From NCBI RefSeq assembly GCF_964355755.1, contig NC_092678.1, positions 20,353,365 to 20,417,364 on the forward strand: DNA of 64,000 nt, read 5' to 3'. This document shows positions 1 through 49,443 of this stretch, piece by piece (the stretch's first letter is position 1; each line of letters starts with the position of its first letter). Under the pieces are notes generated by a model. The model made no database searches, was not told the DNA's origin, and saw only the letters and a program-made list of their open reading frames with translations. The DNA comes from Antedon mediterranea (Eukaryota; Animalia; Echinodermata). The position numbers and the translations under genes were made by a program.

Positions 1-975
1 GCTCAATTTTTAACTGGGCCGGATCAGCTAGATCTGCTTCCTACTACCTGGTCTACTTGCTTGATGCATGAGTATCCGCTTTTTTGGAGAGTAAACTAAG
101 CCTATTTTAGGCCTACTTAGACGATCGGGACACCATACATGTGGACGGCGATCGGACCTTGTTTTGCTTCAATATTTACAGCCGATTTTGTAGAACGTTT
201 TAGGTTTAGATTGTTTAGGAGTTTTGGTTGATAGGATGGGTTTTGTTATTTATGGGCCAATCGTCTAGTAGTAGTAGGCTAGCTAGGCCCATGGGCCCCA
301 TTGTTTTAACGTAGCCATCGTGGCATGGAATCCCTATAGTCAGAATGGCTCTCGCCTATTAGGCTAGGCCTAGAGTAGTATTGTACGTGAAGCCGATAAT
401 ACGATCTGTACTATAGAGGTATAAAAATAGTATACTTTATGACTCCGTAATCTGTACTAAATTTTGTATTTCATTAAATGTCAAATAAATATATGCTACT
501 ACTGTTATTATTACACTTTAGGCCTAGCTTAGAAAATCTACAAAAAAATGTATTTCACAATGATCGGGTGGTCGTCGTTTGACAGGGAAGAGAGATGTAA
601 ATTAGGCCTAGTTGACAAACACAACGTACATGACGTCGCGAGTTTGGAATCCACTGGTGACGTGATTTTGTGAATATCTCATGAATATTAATGAGCTTCC
701 CTAAGCTGCTGAAAAACAGACTTGCCATGAATTTACCCTAAAATGTATATGAAATTTAATTTTTTAAATTTCTCGTTATTACTTCTTCATTCTGACATGT
801 CTATATTGTTATATTTTTTTTAATTTAATAAATAAACGATATTTAAAAGCAATTTTAAACCCAGAATCCCCCTTTAAGCAAAATATCTTTGGTTTTTTTA
901 AATATTTTTCTGCTATTTAATGTTTACATTTCGTTGTTTCTTTATTTATTATTCCTGATTTGTCCTTTTTTACAG

Positions 976-3900
976 CCGAAACCACTGTGCTAACATCACC
1001 AAGTAAGATGTCAAAGACAACAGTGATATCTGAATCTCCTACCGACCCAGAGAAGAAGAGTTCTCCGTGGAAAAATATATACCTTCTGCCGATTCTATGT
1101 AATAAACTTAATATAGTTTCTGATAATTTCACATGTAGAATAATAACTACTAGTTTAATGTAGTACTACTTAAATAACTACACATTTTTTTTTTTTTTTT
1201 TCTGAACCAATCTCTTTGTCTATGTGTACATACAGACACAAAATAAAAACAAAAATCTTGTTAAATTACTCCATAAAATTTACTGCAGAACTTCACATTT
1301 TTCTTGCAGAAGTGCTAACCTATCGTTACCTATGCATACTGTAATTATAATTTATTTGGAACAACAGCACTCTACAGAGAACTTAATTAAAATAAAATAC
1401 ACCTTCAATATTTATAGAAATATCAAGTACAGGTGCAAGAACATTTTTTGGTTCCAAACATCAATTGCAATCGACAGAATTTGCTCAAGCATTGCCAATT
1501 CCTTCAGTCTAATATTCTGGAGGTCAGGTCATGAGGAAAGGATCTTCAGTAGTAGAATTATTTAGGTTACATAAGCTGTCTTTATTGTTATCATCCGACC
1601 AGCTTAATATACATTGTAATGTATTGGACTGCAATTTTAATTTTAAACTTGCACTTTCGAACCCTATACATTGTGGTGCAACTATGTTCTTCTCCTGACA
1701 TGCATAAACAGTGATACTTATTGTGGTCTACAGTACTTGATAATCAAGAGAATGCAGTGTATTTTAAACTTTGTTATATTTTTAGTATTTTTACTCATCA
1801 TCGGCATAATCGTTCTTTGTTGCAAGTTTAATGAGAAGTTTCGGAAATTTTTGGAAAATCTCTTTCCTGGCTATTCCTTTGGTAAGCTGTTTTTTCTATT
1901 ACTTTAAAAAAAAAATTATATGAAGAATTTTCCCCATCATTCTCTTTGCTCCAACCCATACACGGAAGATAAATGCAAGCAATGCGTCTACAATAAGCAC
2001 TGCTCTTTTCCAATAGTGTACCAAGTTTTTTATTGTACATGGTAGACGGTAGTCTGGGTTCCAGACGAAGTTTTGTCTTAATATTAGTAAAAAGATAAAT
2101 ATTTTGGCACATATGGCGTTTCATACGTATACTACTTGATTTTTTTCAGACAAAAATCGCGGTCGAAATAAAAAAAAATAAAAAAAAAAAAAAGATAATA
2201 CAGACTTGGGGCAAGTCTAGGTAGACGGCTTAACAACCTGAAGGATGAGGCAATAAGGGAACTGTACCTTTTCACATGCCAGTCCAATTCATGAATACAC
2301 CATTGTGATTTTTGGCCACTTCCCCTCTCGCTAGAGATTTAAAGGAGTATCTTTGTACCATGCCGACGTTTTTATCTGTGTTTATTATTACAATTGTATA
2401 GTAATGAAATAAATAAAATATAATTGTTAACAAACTCAACATTTTTCTTACCTGCAATCAAAAAGCCTAGCTGAAAAAATTATTTATTTTGTTGTATGTT
2501 TTTTGGAAAACTGAAGTTTTAATTTTTTTCTTTTAGGCTTAATACATAAAAAATTTGCAGAGGGTGATAATAAAATCCAGGATGAGAAATCTGATATCAC
2601 ACTGGTTAATATGGCAGGTAAAAATTTACTTAATAAAATGTATTAAATAACAACATAATAAACAATGACACTACAGAACAGATGACTTGTATTGTCCAAA
2701 TAAACTGGAAATATTGAATATCGAAACGTGGCAGGCTCTAGTTAAAATTTATAATTTAAACTTACGATACTTTTATAGTATTGTATATTCAGGAGTAGCC
2801 GCTGCATAATCTCTTTGCTTTTCTTCCTTATATGTATCTATACTCTATGTTCAATTATTTATACTAACATATAATTATTATATTGATACTTATAACATAA
2901 CAGTTAAATATGTAAATGTAACAATTAATGAATAACCAATCTACTACACGATAATCTAATCTATACACAAGATCATTATTCCAAACTATTACACTAATAG
3001 TTAAATATCTTATTTCTATTTCTGAAAATACATTTCAATCTTCTATCTACTAAAGCTGAAGTATAGTCATATCTTGGGACCATTCTATAGTCACCACCAG
3101 ATAGGTTTTCTTCATCAGTGCTTCTATGAATAGATGTTCTGTTGAGCGCAGGAACGCTAGTTGACAATACCCAATTTAAAAACTCCTACAAAATGTAAAG
3201 TACAGTGATCTCTGGAATGGTGCCATAATATAGTTGTTAATGTAATGTTATTTAAAGAAAAAATTACATGCAAACCTCTGTCCGTTTTTTCTTCATCTGA
3301 GAAGGAAAATGCATTAGTAAATTGATTTTAATATTTTTTTATTTTTTCCCCAAATTGATGATTAAATAATGATTTTATTGTTTTTTAAAGGTGGTGAGGA
3401 CAGTGTACCAAGTGACGAAAAAAAATCACAAGGTATAATGTTTTGTAATTTTTACAATTATAAAACCACATGATTCCTTCATGTTCATTCATCTAAAACC
3501 TCCAATACCTACTGTAATCTCAATTCATGTCAAGCAAACATTATAAAGTTTTGTTTCCACACAAGTGATTTCAATATAATAGGGTTTTAGCTATAGATAA
3601 TAAACTGTACAAAAGCCATTATGTATTTTCCTAGATTTTCTATCAATTGACTATTCTTTTCACAAAAAAAATAAATAAAAATAGTTTTTGTCCAGGTTTT
3701 TTTTTTAAACTTATCACTTGACATTATTTGGGTTCCACATAGAGACTTATACGCTCGTATTCCTAAACCAAACTTTAGTCGTAGTTCGAAGTTCGACTTG
3801 AAAAAGTCCTAGTTCGAGCTATTACTTCAATTTTGATTCATAAACGAAGTAATCAAAGTTTGCAGTTCGACTTAATGAAGTCGAGCTTTTAGTCGAGTTG

Positions 3901-6900
3901 CACACATCTGGGTAACAAAGGCTATACATTGGCCAATGACAAGAAAGTATTTGAGGAGGCAGACGAAATTTTGCTCATTGATATAACTTTCCATTTTCTT
4001 ACAAAAAGTTTTACGCATCAGGACTATAATACATGAAAAATAATTTTAATTGTTAATTATTAGAACAAGATCAGTATTAATTAATAACAGTGAAGTACTT
4101 TTGATTAACAACAAACAAAATCTTCAAAATATATTTAGGAACCATGGCTTATTTTCTAGGCCTCCAACAAAGTATGATCGCGACGAACCACGTACTTCAT
4201 AGTGTGACAAGAAAGCGCTAGGCCCCCTAAACATTCCATCGCGTGGTGAGTTTCCGCATCTCCCATTGTCGCTATAGCGTGACGTAGTTCAAAAATAATA
4301 ATGTAATTTGTATAATACGGTTGTAAATAAACATGATTTAAGCATAAACCAATGTATATTTAAGTAAGCTAATATAAAAATAGATATTTCATTCTTCAAT
4401 ATCTGGCCAATATTACAACTCAATGACTGTTTAACCTTGTTTAAATACCATTTATTTGGTGATTTAGCCTGCCCCCTCGAGGACTAAAAAAATCGATCAA
4501 AATCCATCTCGATTTAAGCCCGGTTTAAGAAGACGGGCGATAGAGTCTAATCAGACTATGGTTTCTGCAAAATAAATTTCACATTGTGCACAGGTTCAAC
4601 TTGGAAATATGAAATATCGTGGCCAAACATACTGTATGTAATCAATATTGGGCATCAGCATCTAAACAAGGTGTGGCCTATTCTGATGTGTATTGTGGAA
4701 AGTGCATCACCAAAAAATTATTTTAGGTAACCAAAAGGAGTGTAGAGAGACTATGAGGATACTTGTAATGTAATTCAATACAATCAGGAGAAACAATAAA
4801 TGTGGAAACTCCCGCGATTAACGCGAGACTTGATAGTGCTACACACCTACTAACTTAGCTATATATAATACTGTATTCGAAGTGTCCAAAATGGCTTTTG
4901 TCAGATATCCCATGTTTATTTGCAATTCTTTATATAGATTACAGTATACAATTTTGACTCTAGTAATGAATATGAATAAAATTAAATCAATTTTTCATTT
5001 GTTTATTATACAGAAACTATGAGTGCATCATGTAAAAATGATGTTGACAAGCCTAAAGGTTAGTTTAAACTCTTACCTTTTATAAAAAGAGTATAATATG
5101 CAAAGATTTATTTAAATAAAACTAATTACCTAATGATAGTTTTTCTTAGTTAGACAATAACTATTTTAATCTAACTGGTTACTGAAAAAGGGAGAGGATT
5201 GGGGGAGGTAGAGAGAGGATTGGGGAGGTAGAGAGAGGGAGAGGAACTCTAACATCTCTAATATGTAAAGATGGATAAAGGTAAATGCAAGAAAACTGAA
5301 AAAGTTTCATTAACCAAGACCCAAATTCTTTTTGTTTTTGTAATTAAAACGCTTTTATATGGCCCTTTGTCAAAAAAAATGTAATCAATCATTTTGACAA
5401 TTAAAAAGATATGTGTAATATTGAAATTATATTATTATTATTTAGCGATTGAGGAACAAGAGCCACTTATGAAGTCTGATGACGTTTTCGTCAAAAAAGG
5501 TAGTGGAAATTTAGGGAAATCTGCTGCTTTAAAAAAGAGGTTTCCAAGACAACGTTCCTCGACCTCCAGCCTTCCTGATGTACCAGAAAACAGTCAATTA
5601 TCAGTGGTTCTACGAAAATGGTGCTATCGTAAGAATTAAGATCATTCAATATTCTTCTGATTTGCGTTCTTTAAAAAATTAAACATAATGTGTTTTAACT
5701 TCTATGAATGATTGCTTAAAACACTTTTTTGTTTTCATATAGTGTACCTATACTTTGTTTTTATGGTATACAGTAATGCCTAAATAGATTTCTGTCATTT
5801 GATGATAAAAAATAAGCACCCTATTTTTGTCGGCGGAAGATAAATAAAAAAATAAAATAATAGATCCTTAAATTTTATGGCCTGTCACTTTCACTTTCAT
5901 TTTTAATTACTCTTTTTATTTTATTTATTTCTTGGATTACTTTTTTTATGTGAAGCGCATTTATGACATTAAAAGTCCAAATTTATTATTATTATTGAAT
6001 AAAAACAGATATTTTATATTCATAGAGGATAGGGCAAGAGTTGAACCGGAACATGTTTCTGAAATCTCAAAACACATTGGGAAAGAAGTAGCAAGGATTG
6101 GTTTCATGCTTGGCTTAACAAATGGGGAAGTGGAAACTATTGAGCATAACCACAAGTCAGATCTTTCTAGACAGAATTTAGTAGTTTTGCAGATATGGTT
6201 GGAAAAGAGAGGTGTTTCTGCTACGAAAAGTGTTCTTGCACGTGCTCTTAACAGTATTGGAAGACCCGAACTTGCATTAAAACATTTATGGACTGACCAA
6301 GAATGGAAACAAGGTAATTCCTTTAGTTCGAATGTTTGTTTTCATGAAAAAGATGTATATTTAAAGCTATGACCATAGAGATAATATTGAATAACTAGAC
6401 CGTCAACTCTAACACAATCACATCTCTTTTTAACATGGAGAGGAACCATCAAAATATTGCTGCATCGCATTAGCTGTGCCGTGCCTACTACTTGGCCATT
6501 CACTACTATATCTCTGTTATAGTATGTTAACTGTATCAAATGTATTCTTAATAGTTAATTTTATAAAAAATGTACTGTATTTAAAACAAATATGGGTCCT
6601 TGCCCTGTCAAATTACTAATTGTCTCTTAGGTAACTCTTGAGTAGATTAGTATATATCTCTAAATAGCCATGACAGATTTTTTTTTTTTCGACTGTCAGA
6701 ATATTTAAGTTTTTTTTATATGTTCACCTATATTTAACATTAATTTAATTTAGGGATTCAAGCAGTCAATAAAGAATCAACGTTTTGGAAAAGAAGAAAA
6801 AGTCGGGAATTGGTGATCAAACTTGATTCTGGTTAGTACTTGTTCAACTTCATTGACCAATTATAATTTTCAAGCCCTACTCCTCCAAACCTACAGTACT

Positions 6901-7857
6901 GTACCTTTCTATAAAACTTTATATAAGAAATTGTAATCAGACCTAAGCCATATTAAAATTGACCATTCTACTGTATTCTCTCCAGTGTCTGTCTGTAAGT
7001 TTTTAGGTTTTTTAAGTCTTTTAGTGTGTAAATTTTAGATGGACAGATAAATTACAATCTGTTTTTTATTTCTTTATTTAAAATTGTATTTTATAGATTA
7101 TTTTGATGGCAAGGATTGGGAAATGCAAAGCACATGGCAAGGTATCTGGGAAATTATGTTAGAAAATGACTTTGGGAATTTCAGACAACTCAAATTAGCT
7201 TGCGGTGCCGTAGAATTACAACAGCCACCCCTTGAAGGTGAAGAAAGCTGTCCATATTTTAAGGGGAATCTTTGCTTGGATCAAAAGGCTGAACAATTGA
7301 TTGATTCAGAGTTTATACATCTGAAGCCAGTTTGTGTATCAGATGGCGTTAACTGTTTATTCTCTGCTGCATCTGTTATCTACTATGGTTCAGAAGATAA
7401 TTTTCTTGAGTTAAAACTACGTACAGTTATTGAGTTGGCCTATCACAAAGATCACTATATGAGACAAAGAGCACTTATCAAGTGTATAAAAGCGGAGTAC
7501 GCACTGACCAAGTTAGAAGAGAATGATGTATTAACCAAACCTAAAGATGTAGAAGCAAACTTTGAAAATTCTATCCGGCAAACATTAAGTGAACAAAACC
7601 TCTTCAGCCTGCAGGGAAACTCCATCCAGCTGTTCGGCCTTGCATCAGTTTTAAACTGCAATATTCAGTCCGTCTTTCCTACAATTGGTGCATCTGAAAC
7701 AAGCCCTTTGAATGTACTTATCACTCCACGTAAGGAACAAGAAAATCCAGCAACAGTTTTCATTATGTGGTCTAGGCACACACCATTACCTGAAGATGGA
7801 CAGTTTGTTCCTAATCACTTTGTCCCTCTTCTTCAAGAACCACCAACCACAAATTAG
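976..7857 (+). CDS. 5'-incomplete spliced gene: type I transmembrane protein with cytoplasmic death domain and C-terminal vertnin-like OTU-fold domain. Predicted exons 976-1098, 1786-1881, 2537-2617, 3391-3432, 5014-5058, 5446-5628, 6026-6313, 6754-6831, 7097-7857 (~564 aa visible)
   Basis: Each exon has a pyrimidine-rich AG acceptor and a GT donor. All introns are phase 1 and the joined frame is open to TAG at 7855-7857. The TM segment IYLLPILLFLLIIGIIVLCC forms across the exon 1/2 junction and is followed by basic KFNEKFRK. Confidence 0.75.
3752..4539. mobile_element. Putative non-autonomous DNA transposon (MITE, possibly PIF/Harbinger-like) in an intron
   Basis: Imperfect terminal inverted repeats gctcgtattcctaaacc (3753) and ggtttaagaagacgggc (to 4538), flanked by ATA on both sides. 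Confidence 0.4.
6026..6313 (+). CDS. Death-domain exon
   Basis: HVSEISKHIGKEVARIGFMLGLTNGEVETIEHNHKSDLSRQNLVVLQIWLEKRGVSATKSVLARALNSIGRPELA follows the death-fold pattern (LGL...I..IE...Q...L..W....G..AT...L..AL..IGR.ELA). Bounded by catag| and |gtaatt. Confidence 0.85.
7097..7857 (+). CDS. Terminal exon encoding a vertnin-like OTU (cysteine protease/deubiquitinase-fold) domain
   Basis: Motifs DGVNCLFSAAS, ELKLRTVIEL, LFGLASVLNCNIQSVFP, LNVLITPR, VFIMWS and PNHFVPL resemble vertnin/OTU-like domains. Confidence 0.75.
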
Positions 7858-9930
7858 TCTTCTGGTTATTCACACACAGAATAATTGTCCCTAGTTAGTT
7901 TTATTGAAATCAACTGTTGAGGGCGCTATGTTTTTTTTTTACCTTGGTCGCATTTTGCCCTTGCATGGTCTTTTTTCGGAGAAAATTTAGAGTTTTTGAG
8001 TAGTAGTTAACTGAGTTTAAGTAGTTTGACTGAAAAAAAAAATCTTTTGCGATCGAGGTTTAAGATAAAAAAAAAACTAATTCTTTCCTTGTTGAAAAAT
8101 TTCAAACCCACCTTAATTTTTATTTGATCCGTCTACAAACAAGTGTCCTTTAAAATTTTATTTTGGCCAGAATTTTCTGATATTCAACTTTCTATGCAAG
8201 AAAATATGGTAAGGGTGGTTAAAAGATTGAATGCAAAACCTTGAAGTAGTTTTTCATTTGAATACTGTTATTGTAAAGTAATCGTGTTATTTTTTATTTA
8301 AAAAATCCTTACTACAGTACTATAACTACTACTGTTTGGGATAACAGAAGGTAAAGGCTGATTTTAACCTCAAAATAAAAAAATAAAAATTATATTAACA
8401 ATTTTTAGAATTAATTAAGGTTTTATAAATGGTATTAGTAGAAGTATATAATATATTCATTACAATGGCTGATTTATTGATATTTTTGAAAAAGTAAAGT
8501 ATTTTTGAAATATATTTTCAATTACTATATGACAGTAGATAAAAGTTTACAATATAATTGGAAAAATTTTATATTCCTTTGAGTTGAACTAAACATTTTA
8601 AATGTAAAAAGCAAAAGTGGGCTTATGTTAAAATGGAACTGAAAGAAACTTTGTTGACATAAGTGATCCGAGAAACTGACTTCAACTGACCACAAAGCTA
8701 TGCAAACTATGTCGACATAAGCTGAGTTGAGTTGCGGATCTGATAGGAACAAAAAAAAAACTGTGGTTCATGTTGACATGGTATTTGTAATCACGACCAG
8801 TTGTAATGTCAGCAAGGATTGTGTGCCTATTGGTTCCACTCCTCAATTACAGATTGCGTCACGTATGCAGTATGGGTAACCATGACTAGATAGAATCCGT
8901 TCCATACTTGGTACACTAGATATTTTGCTTCTCCAATGGCGACACGTGTCCTATTGTTACTTTCCATACATAAGAGCTTGTATACTACTAGTTACTTTCA
9001 GATAAGTTTTACTGTTTATGTCGGTGTATATATTAACTTAATACTGAAGTCTGTATAACAGGTGATATTGAACAAATTCCAATATCAATCATTCCTAATG
9101 AAAATCTGTGTTTTGTGTGTTTAAAAAACAAATTAGAAATAGTTTTTAAAATGACAATGTGTACAGTATTTGTAATGTTACTTATGTATGTGTTACTTAA
9201 AAATATAAGTATTTGGATGTTACTTTTAGTAAACAAGAGTCACTCAACGCATCAGTGTATCTCTACATACATTTATTACTGTATCATGTTCATCACATGT
9301 GCCACCTACAGTATATCATGGTTAGATCAAGGTTAGATCAAGATTACAAAATGATGCATGTGATACATATGTGACACTGTATCACAGAATTTGCCTATGA
9401 TACTGGACAAGGTACAGATACAGTACTGAGAATTAAGTATATAACTTTACTACACATATCTTTCATTTATAGCTGCTTTTATATTATTGGCAACAAAATA
9501 GCTATACATATCAATATATTTTATTTTCAATATATTATGTGGATTGTGATTTTTTTAAAATTGTGTGTTATAAGCGTTAATGTGGAAACAGAAATATTAA
9601 TTTTGTATTCTTGTAGTTTAATAACAAATATATAACCAATGTAGATAAGTATTATTTTTTTAATTGACAAAACCTGCAATTGTAACTAATTAAATATATA
9701 GCAATTATATTTATGTATTGTATTAATTAACTGTCTTTCTTACATCATATTCTACACACATTATGCATGGTAGACGGGAAACAAGATATTTTTTAATTGA
9801 ATTGTAAAGAAATTGTAAGTTTTTTTTTAACCAATAATTTATGATACCATACATTAATATCAATTTTATAACTTTAAAAATATAAAAATATTTTAAATTT
9901 GCATATTTTCACATGTAGATAAGTTATATG

Positions 9931-14635: not shown

Positions 14636-16459
14636 ATTGGTTGCTTTATTTTACCGTACGATTTACACGTTGATGTTATAACTGTAAACACACATTTCCG
14701 TATGATCTTTGCTCAACATTGTTCTCTCCAGTTATATATATCATCAATCGGAACATTATTTGTTTTTTCTTTTTCTTGGATTGAATTAAATAACTGTTAA
14801 TATAACAATAATCATTTCCTTTTCAACCTGTTTTTTTTTTCAGCATTTGCTGAACTTTTGGCTCTCTTCTGATTTCTGTTATTGTTATTATAACAAATGG
14901 TACCAACTTGGAAAAATTGTGTATATAAAACTACGGTCAATTACAGTTTACGACCATTAAAACTGGACTTGTGTGATCTTGAATGGCACTTATTATTAAT
15001 TGAATCTTTTCTGATTTCTATTATTTTCATTATAATCAAGAGGTAAAACTTGGTACCTGTTATCTTGATTTGGACTACGGAGTCGGTATTTTCTAAATTT
15101 CTTTATTGGCTAGCTCTTTCCTGCTTTCAAATTTTTTTGCGACGTGTGTGTGGCTTCGTAAGCTTTCCAAATTAAAATATCCTCTTCTTTTGTAATTATA
15201 TCATTTTAAACATACAACATTAAAGCTATCGAACTTTTGTTTTGTATTGGCGATAAAATGAACAATTCATCTGAGGACAAAAATATAGATTGTGCACATA
15301 TAGTAATACTTACAAATGTATGGATAATGATATCATTGTGGATTATTATCAGTAATTTATTTGTTATTGCGGTAACTATCTGGAAAAAACTGTACACTAA
15401 CTTGGCAAAACGTATCCAGTTCACTTTAAGTATAACTGATTTTTTTTCTGGATTTTGTGGTAGTCTCTGGCCAATTTACAGATTTTTTCTGAAAACACAA
15501 ACATCCTATAATTTACTGGAATATTTTTTGTTGTGCCTTGTGTTCGTATCACAATTACAGTTGTGTTTATTAACAATCGAAAGATACGTAGCAATAGTGT
15601 ATCCGTTTCGTCATCATCAACTGATGACGTCACGTGTTGTAAATACTGGAATTGCAGCAACGATTGTATCAGGATTATTTATGCTCATACCGGGTGGTTT
15701 CATTACTTTTTACACTAACCCATCAGTTTCTTTCTTAATCATCGATACAATAAGGCTTATAATTCTGCTATTAATATGCGTCTTCAATGTCGTCATTTAT
15801 TTCAAAGCCAAAAAGCAACAACAGAAAATTGCCGCAATAGAGAATCTTGTGATAAAATCGAAACGAATAAGAGAGTCTATATCGTGCCTAGCTTACCTGT
15901 ATAAACCGACAATAGCCCGTGCTCTCCAGAGGGAGGGCTTAGATACGAAAGTGAAAAGTTCCTAGAACACCCCTGCATTATAATGGACCCGTCCGCAACC
16001 ACGCCCTCATGTGGGAACGTACCAACGTACCACCGTCATCATTTTCTTTCGTAACGTGAGAGCGTTACGTCGTATGATACCAAGTGTTAGGATTGTACAC
16101 TGTACATACTATACAAAGAGTTCTATTACGCTGATTACTAGTTGACTTGGCCAGGATATTGAGTGTATTCCCACGGCCTGTTGCAGTACCAGCAGTTGAT
16201 ATTGTTCATATATCGTTGATCCGTTTTAAGTCGGGGTCTTCCTTAGATATAAGGAAGATTAAAAAGGAGAAAACAACACCCACTTCGTTGGATTTTAGGC
16301 CGGAACGGCCACGCTACCGGAAGACAAAGGAAAGCAATTTGCATTGCCACCTGGACTGCCTCAGCTGAGGCGTGGACGCACTGTTGCGTGAAACAACAAC
16401 AAAGCCGTCGTCAGGTTGTATTGTTCTTTATCTTGCTAGGTTGCGTTCTGTGCCCGGAT

Positions 16460-17882
16460 ATGCCTAAGTCTGAATGTTGGCAATGCAGGGGCCAGCGTGC
16501 GACAGTCAAGTGGGACCGCCACTTGCTGTGCATTCACTGCCGCACCTGTAGCCAGGAGTCGCCGTGCGACGTTTTTTGTACGTTGGACGGCTTCGCGGTT
16601 CCGGACGTCCGTTGGGGCGTGCGCGGGTGGTAGACCCCGCACCCGTGGAGGTTCAGGTGGAGCCCCCGGCCCCGCTAGTAGAGGAGACCGCGCGCTTGCA
16701 ACGGCCGCTGCGCCTCCACCGCAGAGTGGTACGCAGGACGATGGTTTGTTCCCACCCGTACTGGAGGCCATCGCAGCAGCGGTGCGAGCTCTACCGAGGG
16801 AGGTTGTGCCCTCGGCATCCTCGCCTAATTATCCTCCTGTGCCAGTTCTGCCTCCGCAGTACTTTCAAGGTCGAGGGACGCACCCATCGCCGGATGTCGG
16901 TGGGTACGACAGTTACAGGACCATGACCTCGCTGCCTAGTGAGGATCGCTCCGAGGTTGCACAGGGTGGAGACGGTTTGCAGGCTCTTGTCAATCGTGTG
17001 GTTCCTGCTGTACTTTCGTACATTTGAGTAGAGTACGCCTATGACGCGCCGACGCCCGCGCCGGCTTCGAAGAGGTACTCTACCTTTGGAGTGCGTGCTC
17101 CATTGAAGCGGGTCACGACTTGTCCAGTTGCGCCGCTGGATCCCGAACTTGTCGCTAGGGTAGAGGCTATAGCGAAGGAGCCTAAAACCCGTAGAGCTGC
17201 ATCTCAAGATCTCGCAGCAGCCTTCCCGCTTCCGCAGGACCAGTTTTCAACGCTATATATCGGCACCACCGATCCCGGATGCAGCGAAAGAAGCGTGCGC
17301 GCGAGGATCAAGGTCTCGACGCCAACGGCAGATTTCTGTCTCCTTCGGCCGCCAGAACTGAGGAGGCGCTAATCGCGGTCGACCGTGGCGCACGCGAGAC
17401 GTTACGAACGGTCTCGATGTCGGGCTACCTTCTGTCATTCCTCGCGGATCCGGACCATCCACGGCACCTTGACGCGGACGTGATCTGCTTGCTTCAGCAG
17501 TTTACGGGCCTGGTCGCGGACCAACAAGTGACAATTTCAATGACCTCGGCCGCCGTGCGGAGGGTCAATTGACCGCTTCACAACTAGCGAGTCGTTCGGT
17601 GCTGTGGATCTCTTCTACGGTAATTTCGCCGAGAAGAAAAATAAGTGGGCTCGCGAGCGAGAGGCACGTCGCGAGATGAGATCACGCAAAACGCCTCCAG
17701 CCCCACTGCCGGTGGTGCCATCGATCTCACATCCGCCGCCGTCGGTCCGTAATCAGTCTGAGGTTGGGCAGACTCCTGGGCCGTCGCGACCCCGTAATTC
17801 CCGCCCCGCGCGTGGCGGTAAGCCGGGTAGGGGAGCACGTCGGGACCGCGGTTCGCGACGTGGTGACCGCAGGTGCCGGTAA
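16460..17882 (+). pseudogene. DIRS gag-like ORF1 (frameshifted)
   Basis: Cys/His-rich N-terminus MPKSECWQC...HLLCIHCRTCSQESPCDVFC and a basic Arg/Gly-rich C-terminus. Split over several frames. Confidence 0.65.
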
Positions 17883-17884
17883 CG

Positions 17885-19800
17885 TGCAGGCGAGGTCCGT
17901 GCCGTCCGGGGCCGGACCAGTGGGAGGTCGTCTCCTACGGTTTGTCCGAGAGTGGGAGTAGCTGATGGTAGACAGCTGGATTTTCTCCACACTTAGCTAC
18001 GGCTACCGCATAGAATTTACGAGCCCTCCAGTGTGTGGAGGTCCTCGTCCGACCACAATCCCCAAAGATCCAATAAAGCAACGAGTGCTTATGGACGGGA
18101 TTGCCGCGCTGCTCCAAAAAGGAGCCGTAGTAAGGGTCGAAGAACATCATGCGGGCTCGGGCCACGAATCAACCGTATTCTTAACCAAGAAGTCCTCGGT
18201 GGACTGGCGACCAATTATAAATCTAAGACGTCTGAACAAACGATTTATTCGGCCCCGCAGGTTTCGGATGGAGACAGTCTCATCGATCCTGTTAGGGCTA
18301 AGACGAGGAGACTGGGCCGCATCGACAGATTTAAAAGATGTGTACTTTCACGTACCAATCGCAAAAGAAGACCAACGTTGGTTGCGGTTTCGAATCAACA
18401 ATTGTCTTCACCAGTTCGTCGCGATGTCGTTCGGCCTATCAACGGCTCCGCGCGTGTTCACGCGCACAGTTCGAGCGCTCGGTGCGTTCTTTCACAAGCA
18501 CGGCATTCGCATATTCATGTATCTAGACGACTGGTTAATCGTGGCTCAGTCCAAGGACCGGCTGGTGAGCAGTCTCAATTGTGTCCTTCTCGTAACGGAA
18601 CGCGTAGGGTTCATAGTGAACCGGGAAAAGTCGTGCCTGGTGCCGACTCAGCATCCCATGTATCTCGGAGCGCAGATAGATCTCGTGTCGGGCAGAGTGT
18701 GCCCCTCACAGAAACGAGTAACCTAAGCCCTTGCTGCTATACAAGGCCTGATTACCGCTTCCGCTCCGACAGCATACGACTGGCTGAGAACGCTAGGTTT
18801 CCTAGCCAGCTTTGTAGTTCTAGTTCCGTTTTGTCGGCTACGGATGCAGCCGCTGTAGTTCATCTGTTAGCCTTCTACCGGCCAGGTTCAGACTCATTAG
18901 ACAAGTGGTCCCGATGTCGGCGTTCATTGTAACGCACCTCCAATGGTGGCTAACGGACGGCCGATTGTTAGTGGGCAGATCAATTCAGAGATCAATTCCG
19001 GACACCCGAATAGAAACGGACGCGTCCGAAGCGGGTTGGGGCGGTTGCTCCTCCAGAGTCACGTCTCCGGCGTTTGGAGTGCCGAGGAGGCGTTAGCCCA
19101 CATCAATCTCTTAGAACTTTGGGCAGTAGACCGAACGTTGAAAGCGCTACTTCCAAACATAAAAAATTCACACGTCCATGTCTGCTCGGACAACACAACC
19201 GTGGTCGCGTACATCAACCGACAAGGAGGCACGGAGTCTCCGACTCTTTGCTACCACACATGGACGCTCATGCACTGGTGCATCGCGCACAGAATAACGC
19301 TGACTGCATCGCATATTCCGGGCAGCCAGAATGAGTCGCGGACACGCTGTCCCGACTCGCTTTACGCCCGACCGAATGGCGTCTGTTGCCGAGCATAGCC
19401 ACTCAAATATTCGACCACTTCGGACGGCCGCACATAGATAGACCTGTTTGCGACGTCAGAGAACACGCAGCTCCCGACATTCTGCAGTCGATTCCGGGAT
19501 GCACGTGCGTGGGCGGTGGATGCCCTGTCCATGTCATGGGACGGTTTATGGGCGTACGCGTTCCCGCCGATATCGATCATACCAATAGTTCTGACTCGCA
19601 TTCAGCGCTTCCGATGCCGAGTTCTGTTGATCGCACCGTTCTGGCCTCGTCAAGCGTGGTATCCGCTTCTTGCCAGTCTTCTTTACGATCACCCGCTGCG
19701 TCTTCCGGTCCGCGCGGATCTACTGACGCAAAATCGTGCGAGGTTCTCGACGATCAACCTACAATCCCTGAACCTGACTGTTTGGCCATGGTCAGGGATC
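17885..19800 (+). pseudogene. DIRS pol: reverse transcriptase, RNase H and methyltransferase-like domain (frameshifts and stops)
   Basis: WRPIINLRRLN, DLKDVYFHVPI, FGLSTAPRVFT, YLDDWL; ETDASEAGWG, HINLLELWAV, SDNTTVVAYINRQGGT; DALSMSW...AYAFPP. Confidence 0.9.
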
Positions 19801-20640
19801 AGCTCAGAGACTCGGGCATATCATCTGGAAGAGAGTCGACTCTCACTGTCTACAACAGCCGTCTACGACACTTCTTTCGCTGGTGCGGACAAGATAACAT
19901 AGACCATAAGGCGATATCCTTGGGTCAGATCTGCGCTTTTCTGCATTACCTGTACGAATCAGGCTTGCAAGTGCGCACGGTGTCAGGCTACCGGTCAGCG
20001 ATTGCGGCCATTACGCCGCCATTCAAGGATGGCTCGACGGTTTTCAACTTCCGCAGTAATCACGCAGTTGTTACGCGGTATGTTCAGAGAGCGACCTCCG
20101 TCTAAGGTCTTAGTTCCACGTTGGGACGTTAACGTCATTCTATCCGCACTCACTCGCCCGCCATTTGAGCCAATGAGCAAGGCTTCATTATATAATCTCT
20201 CGCTTAAGACAGCGTTTCTGGTGGCGTTGTCCTCATGTAAACGCTGAGGCGAGCTACATGCGCTCACGCTAGAGCCAGGCCATATACGATTTGAGCATGG
20301 TGGAGTCCGGTTATTATTCAGGAAGGACTTACTGGCCAAGTCCCAGACGTTAAATTTTTCGCCGGCTGTGTTCGTTCCATCAATGTCCGCATTCTCGGGG
20401 GTAGTAGAGGACACATCCTGGTGCCCGGTAAGAGCACTCAAATTCTACATCCACCGTACAGAGACGTTGCGAGAGGGTATATCTCACTTATTCGTCACAT
20501 CGGTGCCCCCGTATCGGCCGGCCGCAAAATCCACGATTGCAACTGGGTCGTGGCAGCGACTCGGGCCGCTTATGAATCGTCCAGCACTTCGCGTTGTACG
20601 CTGGCGGTTCTATATCAGACATTATGACAGCGGCATGGTG
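19790..20640 (+). pseudogene. DIRS tyrosine recombinase (decayed)
   Basis: STLTVYNSRLRHFFRW, TVSGYRSAI, PRWDVNVIL, LKTAFLVALSSCKR*GELHAL, CPVRALKFY. Stop at 20245-20247; the C-terminal HxxR/Tyr region is not recognisable. Confidence 0.85.
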
Positions 20641-23249
20641 GCGGACACAGTCTACGTTTACTGGGCATTATTTAAGGGACATTTCTGCAACCATGGCGCC
20701 AGTAGCAGCAGCGGTGCTAAAGCCTAGGTTATAGGTATGTACACCTCGCTTGCTCTGCTCTTTGTTAACTTACTCCCACCGCCGACTAGTTCTAGTCCGG
20801 TGCTAATCTGGCTATTGTCGGTTTATACAGGTAAGCTAGGCACGATATAGACTACACAAACCAGTAGTGGTGTTAGTAGTCTATGAGTGCTAGCTTACCT
20901 GTATAAACTCCCTCCCGCCGTCCCCGCAGTCAAGTACGCGGAAAATGATGACGGTGGTACGTTGGTACGTTCCCACATGAGGGCGTGGTTGCGGACGGGT
21001 CCATTATAATGCAGGGGTGTTCTAGGAACTTTTCACTTTCGTATCTAAGCCCTCCCTCTGGAGAGCACGGGCTATTGTCGGTTTATACAGGTAAGCTAGC
21101 ACTCATAGACTACTAACACCACTACTGGTTTGTGTATTTCAGAGCTACGAAAACAACTCTGATCGTCGTCGGCACATATTTTATATGTATTTTCCCATTT
21201 TTGATATATTTTTGGTTTAACTCTCTATTGGAAGTCATCTATGGTGAAACTATGCGCGATAGCACAGTATTACTATTTTTATTTGCAGTTACGTATTTAA
21301 ACTCCGGTATGAATCCTATCGTGTATTCGTTTAGGAATGAGCAATTTATTAACTTTGTTCGTTCTCTGTTTAATTAATTTTAAAGACGTTTAATTAATTG
21401 TAAAGGCAAAGAATGGATTTCCACTGGAAATTCAATAAGAACAAACAGGAAGCAATTTTGTAAAATTTAAATCAATCCACATAGTGTAAAGAGAGTAAGT
21501 ATTCTATTTTCCGTTAAGCACTTTTACTGGCTATGTGCGCTATATAAATTGTTAGACTGTCGTAATTAGTATATGAAACACTCACAATTCTAGAGAAAAT
21601 TTTGAAGAAAGATAAACTAATAATGCGCCTCGGAGCAAAATAAATGTTCGCTTTTTGTGCAGTAGTAATTCATTACAGAGCTTGTCTTAACTACTATTAC
21701 TGTATAAATAGATACAGATAGATTTTGAGTCAATTGGCCAATCGAAAATCAGTAAAGCGTTTAGATGGAGGAGACTGATCGTTTCGCAACTAGAGGTAAA
21801 CCCTTTCATCTGGCCGAGCTCAGCGTCCTGTTGCTAGATTGCCTTGTGTTAAGGCGGCAATCAGTCTCAACAACAAACTGCAATGATATCCATGATGGAA
21901 AGTTACCTTAGAAAACTACGCAACATTCGTGGATCGATGATCCTATATTAATTAAACTCTACAAATTGAATTTAAAATGTACTGGATAATAAACCGTAGG
22001 TAGGCCTACATCCGTCTGGACAAGAGAACCTAGAACATCTTTCGAGACGAGTAGGAGCCGGTGGAGGGGGGGGGGGGTGTTCCACGGTGTACTAGCTCAC
22101 ACATCCACTATCGTGGACAGTCGGATTAGCGCTAGACAGCACTGATTGATATTTAGGGTTAAGAGAGAAGCATGTAGCTGAAAAGTGTAAAATGGAAGTT
22201 CAAAGCGCCATGAGCGATGACCATTTGAAAATATTTTCTACAAATTAAATGAATTTGTCTTCTAATAAATTGAATGAAATTTGAAATAAAACATTTCGGC
22301 CTTCATGTGAAATCTTCAATGTCAGCAAATGTGTCTCGTCCTCCTCTCCTCAGTCACCGCACGCCTCTCGTTTTACTACATGACGCTTTCCACTATTTTG
22401 TTTTTCCATTTTCCTCTGTTATATAGGCTGAGTGGTTTTATGTTTTGTCTATTCAATGGCCTACAATTTCATTATTGCAATATATTGAATTAATGTTAAA
22501 TTGACTAAAATTGATTGAATTTGCTTACAATAACAAAGATTAAATTTCATGCATACATTTCAAATGTAATGGTTGTATTTATTGAATTGCAGAATACCAT
22601 AAATGTAGGCCAATATAAAACAGAACTTTCTAAAGTTCCAGTATCATTTCTTATACTGCCCTCTTTGCTGAACACTGTTCTCTCCAGTTTTTTCTGCCGT
22701 CAATCAGTCTATTTGTGGACAAGAAAACTTTTCAGCAACAGAACTGTTTGATTTGTTTATCCATAATTTGTTTATCCGTAATTTCTCTGCTCTCTGGTTT
22801 ATCGTACAATTGAATACTTGCATTTTACTGAGGAAATTTATTTAAAAATCGTTTCTATTTATCTTAAACGGGAGTTAGTCAATGATTTCTGAACTTCTTC
22901 ATTTGCTCTTCCCGGCTTCATGTTATTTAAATTGGATTGAATTAAATACGGTAACTGTTAATATTAATATAACAGTCGTCAATTCTCTTTCTATTGGACA
23001 TTTTATATAAGAAATCTTACGATCAGTAAAGCTGGCTATTGTGAACTAGAAGGAAGCTTCATTTGCTTCATTCTGCTTTCTTCTTTTACTTGAATTGAAT
23101 GAAATAACTGTTGATGTAACACTCGTCATTTACTGTTTACGACCAATTAAAGTTGTACTTCTGTCATCTTCCTTCCTATGCAATTATACAAAATCAACGT
23201 ACCGCATTAAACTATAGAACATTGTTATATTGTTATTTACGATAGTAAG

Positions 23250-25590: not shown

Positions 25591-25808
25591 TGTTACCGTC
25601 TTTTCCATTAAAACTGGACTATTGTGATTTTGAACCGGATTCTCGTCAGCAATTTCCTGAATTTCTTCATTTTCTATATCCTGCATTTTATAATTGTGCG
25701 CTGTAAGCTTTCTAAATTAAATTATTTTCTTCTTGTAGGCCTAATTTACCCTTTCTAAACATATCGCATTAATTATTGTCAAACTTTGTTTTGTTTTGGC
25801 AATAAAAA

Positions 25809-26675
25809 ATGAACAATAATTCTGAAGACACAAATATAGATTTTGCGCATAAAGTATTACTTACAAGTGTATGGACAATTATATCATTGTGGATAATAGT
25901 CAGTAATTCATTCGTTATTGCGGTCACTATTTGGAAAAAACTGTTCACTAACTTGGCAAAACGTATCCAGTTCAGTTTAAGTATAACTGATTTTATTTCT
26001 GGATTTGTTGGTAGTCTGTGGCCAATTTACAGATTTTTTCTGAAAACACCAACATCGAAAAATGTACTGGAATATTTGTTGTTGTGCCTTGTGTTCGTAT
26101 CACAATTACAGTTGTTTTTATTAACAATCGAAAGATACGTAGCAATAGTGTATCCGTTTCGTCATCATCAACTGATGACGTCACGTGTTGTAAGTACTGG
26201 AATTGCAGCAACGATTGTATCAGGATTATTTATGCTCATACCTGGTGGTTTCATTACTTTTTACACTGACCCATCAGTTTCTTTCTTATTCATCGATACA
26301 ATAAGGCTTATAATTCTGCTGTTAACATGCGTCTTTAATGTTATCATATATTTCAAAGCAAAAAAGCAACAACAGAAAATTACCGCAATAGAGAATATGG
26401 TGATCAAATCGAAACGCATAAGCGATTTCAGAGCTACAAAAACCACACTGATCGTCGTCGGAACATATTTTATATGTATTTTCCCATTTTTGATATATTT
26501 TTGGTTTAACTCTCTATTGGAAGTCATCTATGGTGAAATTTTTTTTCGCGATAGCACAGTATTACTTTTTTTATTTGCAGTTACGTATTTAAACTCTGGT
26601 ATGAATCCTATCGTGTATTCGTTTAGGAATGAGCAATTTATTAACTTTGTTCGTTCTCTATTGAATAAACATTAG
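25809..26675 (+). CDS. Class A GPCR, 288 aa (subfamily A)
   Basis: Intact 7TM ORF with ERYVAIVYPF and NSGMNPIVYSFRN. Confidence 0.92.
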   Translation: MNNNSEDTNIDFAHKVLLTSVWTIISLWIIVSNSFVIAVTIWKKLFTNLAKRIQFSLSITDFISGFVGSLWPIYRFFLKTPTSKNVLEYLLLCLVFVSQLQLFLLTIERYVAIVYPFRHHQLMTSRVVSTGIAATIVSGLFMLIPGGFITFYTDPSVSFLFIDTIRLIILLLTCVFNVIIYFKAKKQQQKITAIENMVIKSKRISDFRATKTTLIVVGTYFICIFPFLIYFWFNSLLEVIYGEIFFRDSTVLLFLFAVTYLNSGMNPIVYSFRNEQFINFVRSLLNKH

Positions 26676-46849: not shown

Positions 46850-47143
46850 ATGAATGACATAACATGAAGAAGTAAATAAAACTGTTAGAAATATAGTATT
46901 ACTTACTGTATGGCTCATGATATCATTGTGGATAATTGTCAGTAATTCATTCTTTATTGCGGTCGTCACAATTTTGGAAAAACTTTACACTAATTTGGCA
47001 AAACTTATCCAGTTCAATTTAAGTATAGTTGATTAAATATCTGGAATAAGTCGTAGTATATTGTCAATGTTTATAGTTGTAATAGAAAGATCAATAGTTG
47101 AAGCAATTTTGACACTATTTTTCGGTGTCTTGTCTTCATATCA
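46850..47143 (+). pseudogene. Truncated subfamily C GPCR pseudogene (copy of 42075)
   Basis: Same lesions and same end point as 42075. Confidence 0.85.
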
Positions 47144-47154
47144 ATTCAATTCAA

Positions 47155-49443
47155 AAGCGACCATATGGTGTTACAATTTTCATTGGATCTTGTAAGAGAT
47201 GACAGAATTGAACCAAATATTCGAAGTTACAGGCATGGTAACTATGATTTGCTGCGCGAGAAAATTGGTTTGGTAGATTGGGATGTGGTTTTCAATGACA
47301 AATCAGGTATTCAATCGTGGGACGAATTCGAGCATATTCTTGTGAAGAATATTGATGAGTGTATCCCGATGAGGAAGGTTTGCCACGGAAGAAAACCTCT
47401 TTGGATGAACAAAAAAATTGAAAAGCAGATTGCCAAAAAGAATAAATGTTGGAAACAGTATGTAAAGGCCAAGAGAAAACAAAAAGTATGTGTGTCAGCA
47501 AAATGGTCGAAGTTTGTCCAAGTAAGAAATCAAACAGTAGATCTGATTCGATGTAGTAAATCTGACTTCGAAAATAAAATAGCAATTGAGATCAAATCTA
47601 ATGAAAAGTCTTTTTGGAGGTATCTCAGTTCTCAGATCAATATAAAGTCTGGTATACCCAACTTAACTGATAGTAATGGAAGGCATGTGTCTGATGACAA
47701 GGATAAGGCTGAGTTGCTAAACACGTTTTTTAGTAGTATATTTGTCGATGAAAATTTTTCGAATGTACCGGCTATTGATGACATTTCAGAGGATTTTTTA
47801 TCTCATGTTGACTTTCCTTGTGACGAAATCTTAAATATTTTATCAACGTTGAATATTACTAAAACAGCTGGACCTGATGGTATTCACCCACGCATCTTAG
47901 TCGAACTAAAGGATATCATTTGCTATCCCCTCCATATTATTTTTACGAAATTGTTTCAAGAAGGAGCCGTCCCTAATAGTTGGAAACGGGCTACAGTGGT
48001 ACCGATTTTTAAAAAAGGAGTGAAGTCTGACCCAAGCAACTATAGACCTGTGAGTTTAACTTCGGTAGTTGGTAAAATTATGGAGAGAATTATCAGGAAG
48101 GAATTATTGGACTTTCTTGAACATCACTCACTTATTTGTTATGAGCAATTTGGTTTCCGGCAAGGTCGTTCCTGTGCTTTACAATTACTTGATGTTCTTG
48201 AAAACTGGTTTTCTTATTTTGATAATCAGGATTGTTTTGATTGTATCTACCTTGACTACAAGAAGGCTTTCGATAGTGTGCCTCATCATAGACTCCTTCT
48301 GAAAATGAGTGCATTGGGTATTAGAGGTAAACTTCTAAACTGGTTTCAAGAATTTCTTAACGATAGACAACAACGGGTTAGTGTCAATGGATGTGTTTCA
48401 GATTGGGCTGATGTTCGTAGTGGTATCCCGCAAGGAAGCGTCGTTGGACCTGTTCTTTTCATTATGTTTATAAATGATTTACCTTCTGTTATTTCCTCCT
48501 CTGTACGCATGTTTGCAGATGATACTAAATTGTATAGAGTAGTTAACACTGTGAATGATGCTCAAGTTCTACAAGAAGATTTAGAGAAAGCATGTGACTG
48601 GTCTGACAAATGGCAATTACCTTTTAACGAGGGTAAGTGCAAAGTAATGCACTTTGGGAAGAAAAACAACAAACATCTGTATGCCATGCGTGGTTTCTCA
48701 TTGAATGAAGTTGATCATGAAAAAGACCTCGGTGTTACTATTGACTCTAAACTTGTTTTTAATGTACATGTGGCAGATGTAGCAATGAGAGCAAATCGGA
48801 AGTTGGGCATGGTATATCGAGCTTTCAAGTTTTTAAATATGGATGGGTTTCTTCGTTTATATAAAGCTATTATTCGTCCGACCTTGGAATACTGCAACGT
48901 TGTTTTTAACTCGCTACATTGTAAGGAGGAAGACCTATTGGAAAAAGTCCAAGAACGTGCCACCAAGCTTATTTTTTCCATTCGTCATTTACCTTATTCA
49001 GAAAGGCTGAAAATTCTCAACCTACCTACTCTCGCATACAGAAGGCAAAGAGCTCATTTGATACAGATTTTTAAAATTTTACATGGAGTGGATAGTATTT
49101 CTGCTGATTCTTTTTTTGAGCGTGATGAAGATGTTAGAACACGTGGTCATTCTTTTAAATTAAAATTTAAGATCTCACGCACAAATTGGATGAGGGACTC
49201 ATTTGGTCGAAAAGCTATTATATTATGGAATTCGTTATCGGAGGATGTAGTAGCTTCAAGATCAACCAATCAATTTAAGTCCGGTCTTAAACGGGCATGG
49301 TCCAACCACCCTCTTAAATTTGCGCCATATTCAAGAGTTGATGTAATTATCAAGAGGGGCTTATAGGCATAGCATAGCCTCGACTCCGGACCCAGCATTG
49401 CTGAGCTCCGGAAACAAGTAAACAAGTAAGTAAACAAGTAAGT
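47155..49443 (+). mobile_element. 5'-truncated CR1-clade LINE
   Basis: 7-bp TSD aattcaa (47148-47154, 49444-49450) and a 3' (aaac)aagt repeat tail. Empty sites at ~42370 and ~52835. Confidence 0.92.
47165..49366 (+). CDS. LINE ORF2 remnant: reverse transcriptase, open for 733 codons, endonuclease lost
   Basis: AGPDGIHPRIL, NYRPVSLTS, QFGFR, DYKKAFDSVPH, GIPQGSVVGP, FADDTK, RTRGH. Begins just after the endonuclease-terminal SDH codons. Confidence 0.9.
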   Translation: MVLQFSLDLVRDDRIEPNIRSYRHGNYDLLREKIGLVDWDVVFNDKSGIQSWDEFEHILVKNIDECIPMRKVCHGRKPLWMNKKIEKQIAKKNKCWKQYVKAKRKQKVCVSAKWSKFVQVRNQTVDLIRCSKSDFENKIAIEIKSNEKSFWRYLSSQINIKSGIPNLTDSNGRHVSDDKDKAELLNTFFSSIFVDENFSNVPAIDDISEDFLSHVDFPCDEILNILSTLNITKTAGPDGIHPRILVELKDIICYPLHIIFTKLFQEGAVPNSWKRATVVPIFKKGVKSDPSNYRPVSLTSVVGKIMERIIRKELLDFLEHHSLICYEQFGFRQGRSCALQLLDVLENWFSYFDNQDCFDCIYLDYKKAFDSVPHHRLLLKMSALGIRGKLLNWFQEFLNDRQQRVSVNGCVSDWADVRSGIPQGSVVGPVLFIMFINDLPSVISSSVRMFADDTKLYRVVNTVNDAQVLQEDLEKACDWSDKWQLPFNEGKCKVMHFGKKNNKHLYAMRGFSLNEVDHEKDLGVTIDSKLVFNVHVADVAMRANRKLGMVYRAFKFLNMDGFLRLYKAIIRPTLEYCNVVFNSLHCKEEDLLEKVQERATKLIFSIRHLPYSERLKILNLPTLAYRRQRAHLIQIFKILHGVDSISADSFFERDEDVRTRGHSFKLKFKISRTNWMRDSFGRKAIILWNSLSEDVVASRSTNQFKSGLKRAWSNHPLKFAPYSRVDVIIKRGL

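Follow-up and report, generated by a model that had tools for sequence, protein, structure and literature searches.

The window analysed here, 64,000 nucleotides (nt) of the crinoid Antedon mediterranea (assembly GCF_964355755.1, contig NC_092678.1, positions 20,353,365 to 20,417,364 of the forward strand), carries near its start the transmembrane and cytoplasmic parts of a gene for a death receptor of the tumour necrosis factor receptor (TNFR) type, whose tail ends in a domain with the predicted OTU fold of the vertnin-like family. Read from its splice sites, the gene consists within the window of nine exons in one frame, as the initial annotation had proposed. They join into 564 open codons (564 amino acids, aa) with one terminal stop at 7857; an AG acceptor stands at all nine exons and a GT donor at the upstream eight, and all introns of the receptor gene are in phase 1.

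The OTU exon retrieved, at a 98% match, the RefSeq model P0001 (“uncharacterized protein”, Antedon mediterranea), with which the window frame agrees at 515 of 524 residues downstream of exon 1. This model adds an N-terminal hydrophobic helix (signal peptide) and a cysteine-rich TNFR-type ectodomain. Its residues 1–144 gave no tblastn match in the window, and the signal-peptide and cysteine-rich exons lie upstream of it, where the ectodomain had been expected. The TNFR_c6 match of P0001 (E 5.7e-6, 27.1 bits) falls just under the cut-off of 29.4, while that of the counterpart P0004 from Anneissia japonica, at 30.0 bits, lies above it. A single hydropathy peak, 3.15 at residues 34–52 of the window frame, sits astride the exon 1/2 junction, and the transmembrane helix occupies residues 172–191 of P0001 in the AlphaFold2 (AF2) model. 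Exon 7 matches Pfam Death (PF00531; E 3.1e-9, 37.3 bits, cut-off 22.6), has the RIPK1 death domain as its best PDB sequence match (E 5.2e-6) and is modelled as a helical bundle with a predicted local distance difference test score (pLDDT) mostly above 90. Between membrane and death domain runs a long linker, predicted disordered; the full-length model (predicted template modelling score, pTM, 0.48, with a low-confidence ectodomain) is uninformative on domain contacts. The protein is thus a TNFR-type death receptor by three features, the cysteine-rich ectodomain, the single transmembrane segment and the death domain, and the single-pass order of stalk, membrane segment, linker and death domain first read from the exons is borne out.

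Two linker motifs are shared between crinoid genera: RxxSSxSxLP in exon 6 (5547–5576), common to the Antedon paralogues and Anneissia, and FWxRxxS in exon 8 (6783–6803), conserved in both genera. Both resemble what we take to be basophilic kinase sites, a possible switch. Scans for TRAF-binding motifs gave no site common to the four full models. Two variations were seen in the extracellular part. The stalk exon at 976–1035 is ~15 codons longer than that of P0001 and is present in its window version in sequencing run X1, a mucin-like stalk length variant; and the RefSeq isoforms P0001 and P0007 differ only in their first ~65 residues, upstream of the window. The latter difference suggests that the exons encoding the signal peptide and the beginning of the cysteine-rich region are duplicated and used alternatively, by which ligand binding might be varied.

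Exon 9 gives a Pfam OTU match (E 0.01, 16.8 bits) below the curated cut-off of 23.3. Its AF2 model, built on a 70-row alignment, reaches pLDDT 90.6 and pTM 0.90; in it a helix starts at Cys86 (numbering of the OTU exon) and a strand at His240. Foldseek placed A20 first (E 1.1e-5), and VIA-align returned VCPIP1 (Z 13.7, 189 residues aligned, root-mean-square deviation (rmsd) 3.6), TRABID (12.3), OTUD3 (12.0), and Cezanne and A20 (both 11.6), where entries within 1 Z count as tied. The top ESM Atlas cluster is OTU-like (score 0.95), with PF02338 in 44% of its members, and a profile of the family matches Cezanne (1e-9), OTUD1 (4e-9) and A20 (1.7e-5) by sequence. A homologue search over 1.84 billion representatives yielded 539 matches at E<=0.001, of which the best 150 were listed; the best match after five crinoid proteins is a frog protein named as vertnin (36% identity, E 4.5e-17). 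Exon 9 is therefore modelled as an A20/VCPIP1-like OTU fold of the vertnin-like family; a vertnin-like OTU had been supposed in the initial annotation. No zinc-finger and no helix-turn-helix (HTH) family was matched by Pfam in P0001–P0004.

Evidence that these exons are spliced together comes from sequencing runs, of which five were found, none recorded as RNA; X1 was taken as RNA by the tool's guess, and its contigs give neither strand nor expression level. Seven of the eight GT..AG introns are skipped exactly by X1 contigs: one contig of 505 nt passes over five consecutive introns from exon 2 to exon 7, and another of 600 nt joins the death exon, exon 8 and the OTU exon, skipping two introns exactly. 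The other three compared runs, all from one sample, cross such introns unspliced (e.g. 6073–7380 in X5). Three junctions had been singled out for checking at the outset: 6313/6754 and 6831/7097 are confirmed by the 600-nt contig, while 1098/1786 is bridged by no X1 contig and rests on the RefSeq model. At that end, an X1 contig covers 975–1083 with 0 differences, and the 29 nt preceding 975 in it are unplaced on 900–8000. No single X1 contig extends from the transmembrane segment to the OTU, the 505-nt and 600-nt contigs overlapping by ~29 nt within exon 7. The OTU exon differs from its best-matching X1 contigs at four positions, two of them silent. It might be argued that receptor and OTU are separate genes and their fusion an artefact of exon stitching, given the unbridged junction, the guessed label of the sole RNA run and the want of a contig from membrane segment to OTU. 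Against this stand the one contig that links death and OTU exons over two exact GT..AG introns, the DNA-like runs that cross the same introns unspliced, and six RefSeq gene models, in two species, in which death domain and OTU are likewise joined; an artefact is hardly credible, and the two domains are assigned to one gene.

The six models comprise three from Antedon and three from Anneissia japonica, a member of a different family, so that the architecture, sought in other genomes, recurs in a second crinoid genus. In Antedon, the paralogue P0002 has death domain and OTU, and a further death-domain paralogue model, P0156, is without OTU. A third fused model, P0003, shows two tandem death domains before the OTU and has no signal peptide or transmembrane segment; the model may be incomplete or a merger, or P0003 may represent a soluble variant. 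Anneissia has the full-length counterpart P0004 and the partial models P0009 and P0010; all three lie on a contig of one length, 509,537 bases. When P0001 is aligned with P0004, the OTU core agrees at 104/184 positions (57%), the death domain at 47/94, the cysteine-rich region at 35/95 and the linker at 39/127; by this alignment the OTU core is the best-conserved region between the two genera, and the OTU is open in every full model. In trees, one built from 154 rows minus 4 short or duplicate ones and the others from 56 chosen rows, the three Antedon OTUs form a clade (100/99) within a crinoid clade (100/100), and this nesting points to one gain of the OTU followed by separate expansions in Antedon and Anneissia. 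Crinoid and vertnin OTUs fall in separate clades.

A profile search with seven crinoid sequences returned four Antedon proteins only; it scored 7,993 candidates and missed even its Anneissia inputs, and is therefore no evidence of absence elsewhere. A length-matched (“near”) search added one distant protein. Crinoid proteins with death domain and OTU are already in RefSeq as “uncharacterized”, and, as NCBI CDD has a vertnin-OTU model, automated annotation may already show the two domains together. A full-text search, which covered main texts and for the most part journals outside subscription, found no description of a TNFR with an OTU or of this crinoid family; “OTU” has 0 occurrences in the main texts of three papers on TNFR evolution (PMC4979521; bioRxiv 10.1101/2024.07.27.603686; bioRxiv 10.1101/2021.12.26.474206) and 0 in the accessible text of a sea-cucumber review (PMC13673367). 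The receptor architecture is real and conserved, and apparently undescribed.

Table 1. Features of the receptor gene and of its OTU exon in the window (X1, contigs of run X1; AF2, AlphaFold2 model).
Feature	Positions	Strand	Basis
Exon 1: Ser/Thr/Pro-rich stalk and first part of transmembrane helix	976–1098	+	splice sites; X1 contig
Exon 2: remaining transmembrane helix, Cys-Cys, basic juxtamembrane residues	1786–1881	+	splice sites; donor joined to 2537 in X1; P0001 helix (AF2)
Exon 3: cytoplasmic linker, predicted disordered	2537–2617	+	splice sites; X1; AF2
Exon 4: cytoplasmic linker, 42 nt	3391–3432	+	splice sites; X1
Exon 5: cytoplasmic linker, 45 nt	5014–5058	+	splice sites; X1
Exon 6: linker with basic/Ser motif and start of death-domain lead-in	5446–5628	+	splice sites; X1
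Exon 7: death domain	6026–6313	+	Pfam PF00531; PDB sequence match; AF2
Exon 8: 26-codon linker, death domain to OTU	6754–6831	+	splice sites; X1
Exon 9, terminal: entire vertnin-like OTU domain (252 aa) and stop codon	7097–7857	+	AF2; Foldseek; VIA-align
Asp61 of OTU exon: family Asp, almost invariant; possible third catalytic residue or helix cap	7279–7281	+	
Cys loop DGVNC: Gly83, Val84 in place of family Asp, Gly	7342–7356	+	alignment
Putative catalytic Cys86	7354–7356	+	alignment
Putative catalytic His240 in PNHFVPL, strand start in model	7816–7818	+	alignment; AF2
Two AATAAA hexamers, candidate polyadenylation signal	8374–8387	+	

Conservation in the OTU was counted over 141 non-crinoid, non-vertnin rows, with filled rows as denominators. 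The putative catalytic Cys and His noted at first reading are indeed kept: Cys86 and His240 align with family columns that hold Cys in 133/135 and His in 137/139 rows, and among crinoid rows Cys is present in 6/6 and His in the 4/4 that reach it. The six vertnin rows have lost Cys in six cases and His in five. The residue two after the His is Val in the window OTU, as in A20, and the stop codon follows 12 residues past His240 in the window frame. Of 26 strongly conserved positions the window OTU retains 22, against a family median of 24; it deviates by D83G, G84V, R106K and Y193F, the first three common to both Antedon paralogues. DGVNC aligns gaplessly to the family GDGNC, and its Asp is therefore not a shifted conserved residue; the Antedon loop is better read as a substitution, with the family Asp(-3) and Gly(-2) apparently replaced by Gly and Val. 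The initial annotation, which had the Asp displaced to four residues before the Cys, must be corrected here, since that column is variable in the family and holds His in both Antedon paralogues. An insertion in DGVNC was considered and set aside as less economical, the Val/Ile column upstream being gapless and the paralogues having His; a compensating indel is possible. The Anneissia loops read NGNC (P0004), DGNC (P0010) and DDNC (P0009), and NGNC occurs in 6/129 relatives with Cys and His intact. Asp61 is kept in 119/123 non-crinoid, non-vertnin rows, 7/7 crinoid rows and 6/6 vertnin rows, and it may be the third catalytic residue, a part for which Asp70 is a candidate in A20 (accessible text of PMC10284599).

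At mammalian TNF receptors, ubiquitin chains decide between inflammation and death, and the enzymes that remove these chains, CYLD, OTULIN and A20, are recruited separately. The reading preferred here, to which we give about an even chance, is that the Antedon gene encodes a TNFR-type death receptor with a built-in OTU deubiquitinase acting on its own signalling complex. A TNF-like ligand would cluster the receptor, and the death domains would recruit death-domain adaptors, which would become ubiquitinated; the OTU, ~28 residues from the death domain, would then trim the ubiquitin chains of these adaptors. An OTU so placed would act without recruitment, and a self-editing receptor, death-biased or self-limiting, is therefore favoured, most probably working as an A20-type editor attached to a death receptor would. 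By analogy with mammalian TNFR1, NF-kB output would be shortened and the balance shifted to apoptosis; in the TNFR1 complex, ubiquitin chains drive NF-kB, deubiquitinases counteract them and compromised ubiquitination leads to a caspase-8 death complex (as set out in the accessible text of PMC6609852). The DGVNC loop would change rate or linkage preference and would not abolish activity. Because the Cys loop of OTU enzymes also shapes the proximal-ubiquitin site (PMC3705208, accessible text), the Gly-Val change could shift the choice of linkage, or could just as well weaken catalysis.

Several observations weigh against this reading. The family holds Gly(-2) in 132/134 rows and Asp(-3) in 122/134, where the Antedon copies have Val and Gly; the window and both Antedon paralogues carry G-V-N-C in place of the canonical D-G-N-C loop, and GVNC appears in 0/129 non-crinoid relatives that keep Cys and His. 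Anneissia P0009 has Asp for Gly(-2), and its model, like that of P0010, stops before the His. R106K is present in all three Antedon copies, at a position where 5/6 vertnin rows also deviate. As 82/183 OTU-core positions are invariant across the four copies anyway, the retention of Cys and His speaks only modestly for selection on catalysis. Asp61, which the profile alignment did not put on A20 Asp70, may be structural, for it is equally kept in the dead vertnins. No member of the vertnin-like OTU family was found with measured deubiquitinase activity, and, as to origin, the tree rejects sisterhood neither with vertnin (p-AU 0.635) nor with the coral clade (0.69). The Gly and Val substitutions raise the odds that activity is reduced or altered in the Antedon copies.

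These same substitutions are a ground for supposing that the OTU, at least in Antedon, is a pseudo-enzyme serving as a ubiquitin- or partner-binding scaffold, on the path taken by vertnin and OTULINL. G84V and D83G are fixed in three Antedon copies and found in 0/129 intact relatives, and the P0009 loop has lost its Gly(-2) to Asp. Precedents are vertnin and OTULINL, both classed as OTU homologues without activity, the latter located at the endoplasmic reticulum and nuclear envelope (accessible text of PMC10318531), and A20 with its non-catalytic scaffold roles (PMC13368651, accessible text). Yet Cys, His, Asn239, Trp224 and Asp61 are kept in copies ~30% diverged and across two families, the AF2 model is confident at the Cys loop (block means 90–96), and the decay of vertnin began with the loss of Cys and His themselves. 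A pseudo-enzyme is the main rival reading, though we consider it less likely than not.

An altered Cys loop could also mean an altered substrate, so that the OTU might be an active protease with a target other than ubiquitin, cleaving its own tail to free the death domain or removing a ubiquitin-like modifier. OTU-like and viral papain-fold enzymes that process polyproteins are described in the accessible text of PMC10318531, and the linker from membrane to death domain is long and predicted disordered; set against this, the nearest solved folds are all ubiquitin-specific A20-like deubiquitinases, the four full models have no Gly-Gly motif in common in their cytoplasmic linkers, and the stretch joining death domain to OTU is free of any. 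Self-cleavage at a ubiquitin-tail-like Gly-Gly was accordingly discarded as a candidate, the four full models sharing no such site, and a non-ubiquitin protease as a whole is judged improbable. Still less can be said for the OTU exon as a passenger without function, picked up from a transposon and borne at the C-terminus because it does no harm. The family is common in transposon-like open reading frames (ORFs), the domain is encoded by one terminal exon, and the paralogue P0156 does without it; an idle domain would sit poorly with an OTU that is the best-conserved region across two crinoid families and open in every full model, and two of the four differences in the best X1 contigs are silent. 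The protein identities already hint at a dN/dS well below 1 for the OTU exon among crinoids. We regard a passenger as very unlikely.

As for how the built-in deubiquitinase arose, a single acquisition is probable: an ancestor of the feather stars would have taken up the OTU as one terminal exon out of a transposon-associated mobile family, and the receptor-OTU gene would then have multiplied separately in Antedon and Anneissia. Among the matches listed, 3 of the 147 scanned with Pfam have a death domain (two partial Anneissia models and one Montipora protein) and 0/147 a TNFR domain; of 145 non-crinoid matches listed, 1 has a strongly hydrophobic segment, at its N-terminus, and 27 carry the motif HGKxxxDG, which we take to be of transposase type. 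Helitron, DDE_1, hAT and MULE Pfam domains occur in single matches among those listed, and Helitron-like elements are known to carry OTUs (accessible text of PMC11417382). These transposon-type motifs and domains among OTU relatives make a mobile donor for the single-exon OTU plausible. Alongside, a large unnamed family of HGKxxxDG ORFs of ~1000–1300 aa was observed (P0016, P0005, P0025 and 24 others), with an intact vertnin-like OTU near the C-terminus and in most cases no Pfam match. A wider proposal, that feather stars possess a family of enzyme-linked TNF receptors with an active transposon-derived deubiquitinase, by which the switch between survival and death is set at the receptor itself, and that corals, independently, joined death domains to OTUs of the same family, is credible, with the balance tilted against it.

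Elsewhere in the window, positions 1–900, 2050–2230 and 3750–4500 show very high contig depth, as interspersed repeats within introns of the receptor gene, and contigs of the DNA-like runs lack 2048–2231, which marks an insertion polymorphism. Downstream of the receptor gene, ~15 similar intronless ORFs for seven-transmembrane (7TM) receptors of ~290–310 aa, some frameshifted or truncated, stand in tandem on the + strand over 15210–64000; the one scanned, 25806–26675, matches Pfam 7tm_1 (E 5.7e-21), and the array resembles an expansion of chemoreceptor type. The first 7TM ORF, truncated (15210–15965), is followed immediately by a GC-rich insert, ~16000–21000, with a reverse transcriptase at 17962–18726 (RVT_1, E 2.4e-19); its ORFs resemble what we assume to be a DIRS-type retroelement. 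A LINE-like ORF of 754 aa, with a reverse transcriptase domain (E 4.1e-32), lies inside the array at 47102–49366 (+).

A receptor carrying its own OTU would make a TNFR that is itself catalytically active, and would serve as a natural experiment on tethered deubiquitination close to the receptor. It also offers a tractable entry to the large family of vertnin-like OTUs, in which the human protein is a pseudo-enzyme, and the pairing of Antedon and Anneissia, with an altered and a near-canonical Cys loop, would let one watch an enzyme either change its specificity or decay. The reach of the fusion is limited, for it was seen in no more than two crinoid families. Should the wider proposal hold, animal death-fold signalling would have received ubiquitin editors from mobile elements repeatedly, and the function of vertnin's ancestor could be read from active members in invertebrates.

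Among proteins to which the crinoid receptor can be compared, two uncharacterised entries from the coral Montipora foliosa (XP_068700045/6; P0013/P0157) also join a vertnin-like OTU to death domains. There the OTU comes first and two death-like repeats follow, neither isoform has a transmembrane segment or TNFR domain, the loop is DGNC, and the OTU sits in a well-supported clade with related stand-alone OTUs; from this order, composition, loop and placement, the Montipora fusion is probably independent. Transposon-borne OTUs (Helitron-like elements; HGKxxxDG, DDE_1, hAT and MULE ORFs) belong to the same family and mostly retain an intact DGNC...NHF, whereas the crinoid OTU is encoded by the last exon of a host receptor gene rich in introns, and no remnant of a transposase was seen in its protein. 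Vertnin (VRTN) is of the same OTU subfamily and shares an N-terminal helical extension and the invariant Asp; it lacks catalytic residues (accessible text of PMC10318531) and, unlike the crinoid receptor, has C-terminal HTH repeats and neither transmembrane segment nor death domain. The A20-like deubiquitinases (A20/TNFAIP3, Cezanne/OTUD7B, TRABID, VCPIP1) provide the closest solved folds (Z 11.6–13.7 over 180–202 residues, rmsd 3.6–5.2), and A20 has the same HFVPL around its His. They show 11–19% identity to the crinoid OTU, have a GDGNC loop in place of DGVNC, and are soluble and recruited to receptors, whereas the crinoid OTU is part of the receptor and its protein is without zinc fingers. 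To our knowledge, TNFRs have no intrinsic enzyme activity. The TNFR death receptors, such as TNFR1, Fas, p75NTR and those of sea urchin, amphioxus and coral (the sea urchin having 13 TNFRs, 3 with a death domain, according to a table of PMC4979521), share with the crinoid protein a signal peptide, a cysteine-rich ectodomain, a stalk, one transmembrane segment and a death domain; the crinoid protein differs in carrying, after the death domain, an OTU-fold domain of 252 aa.

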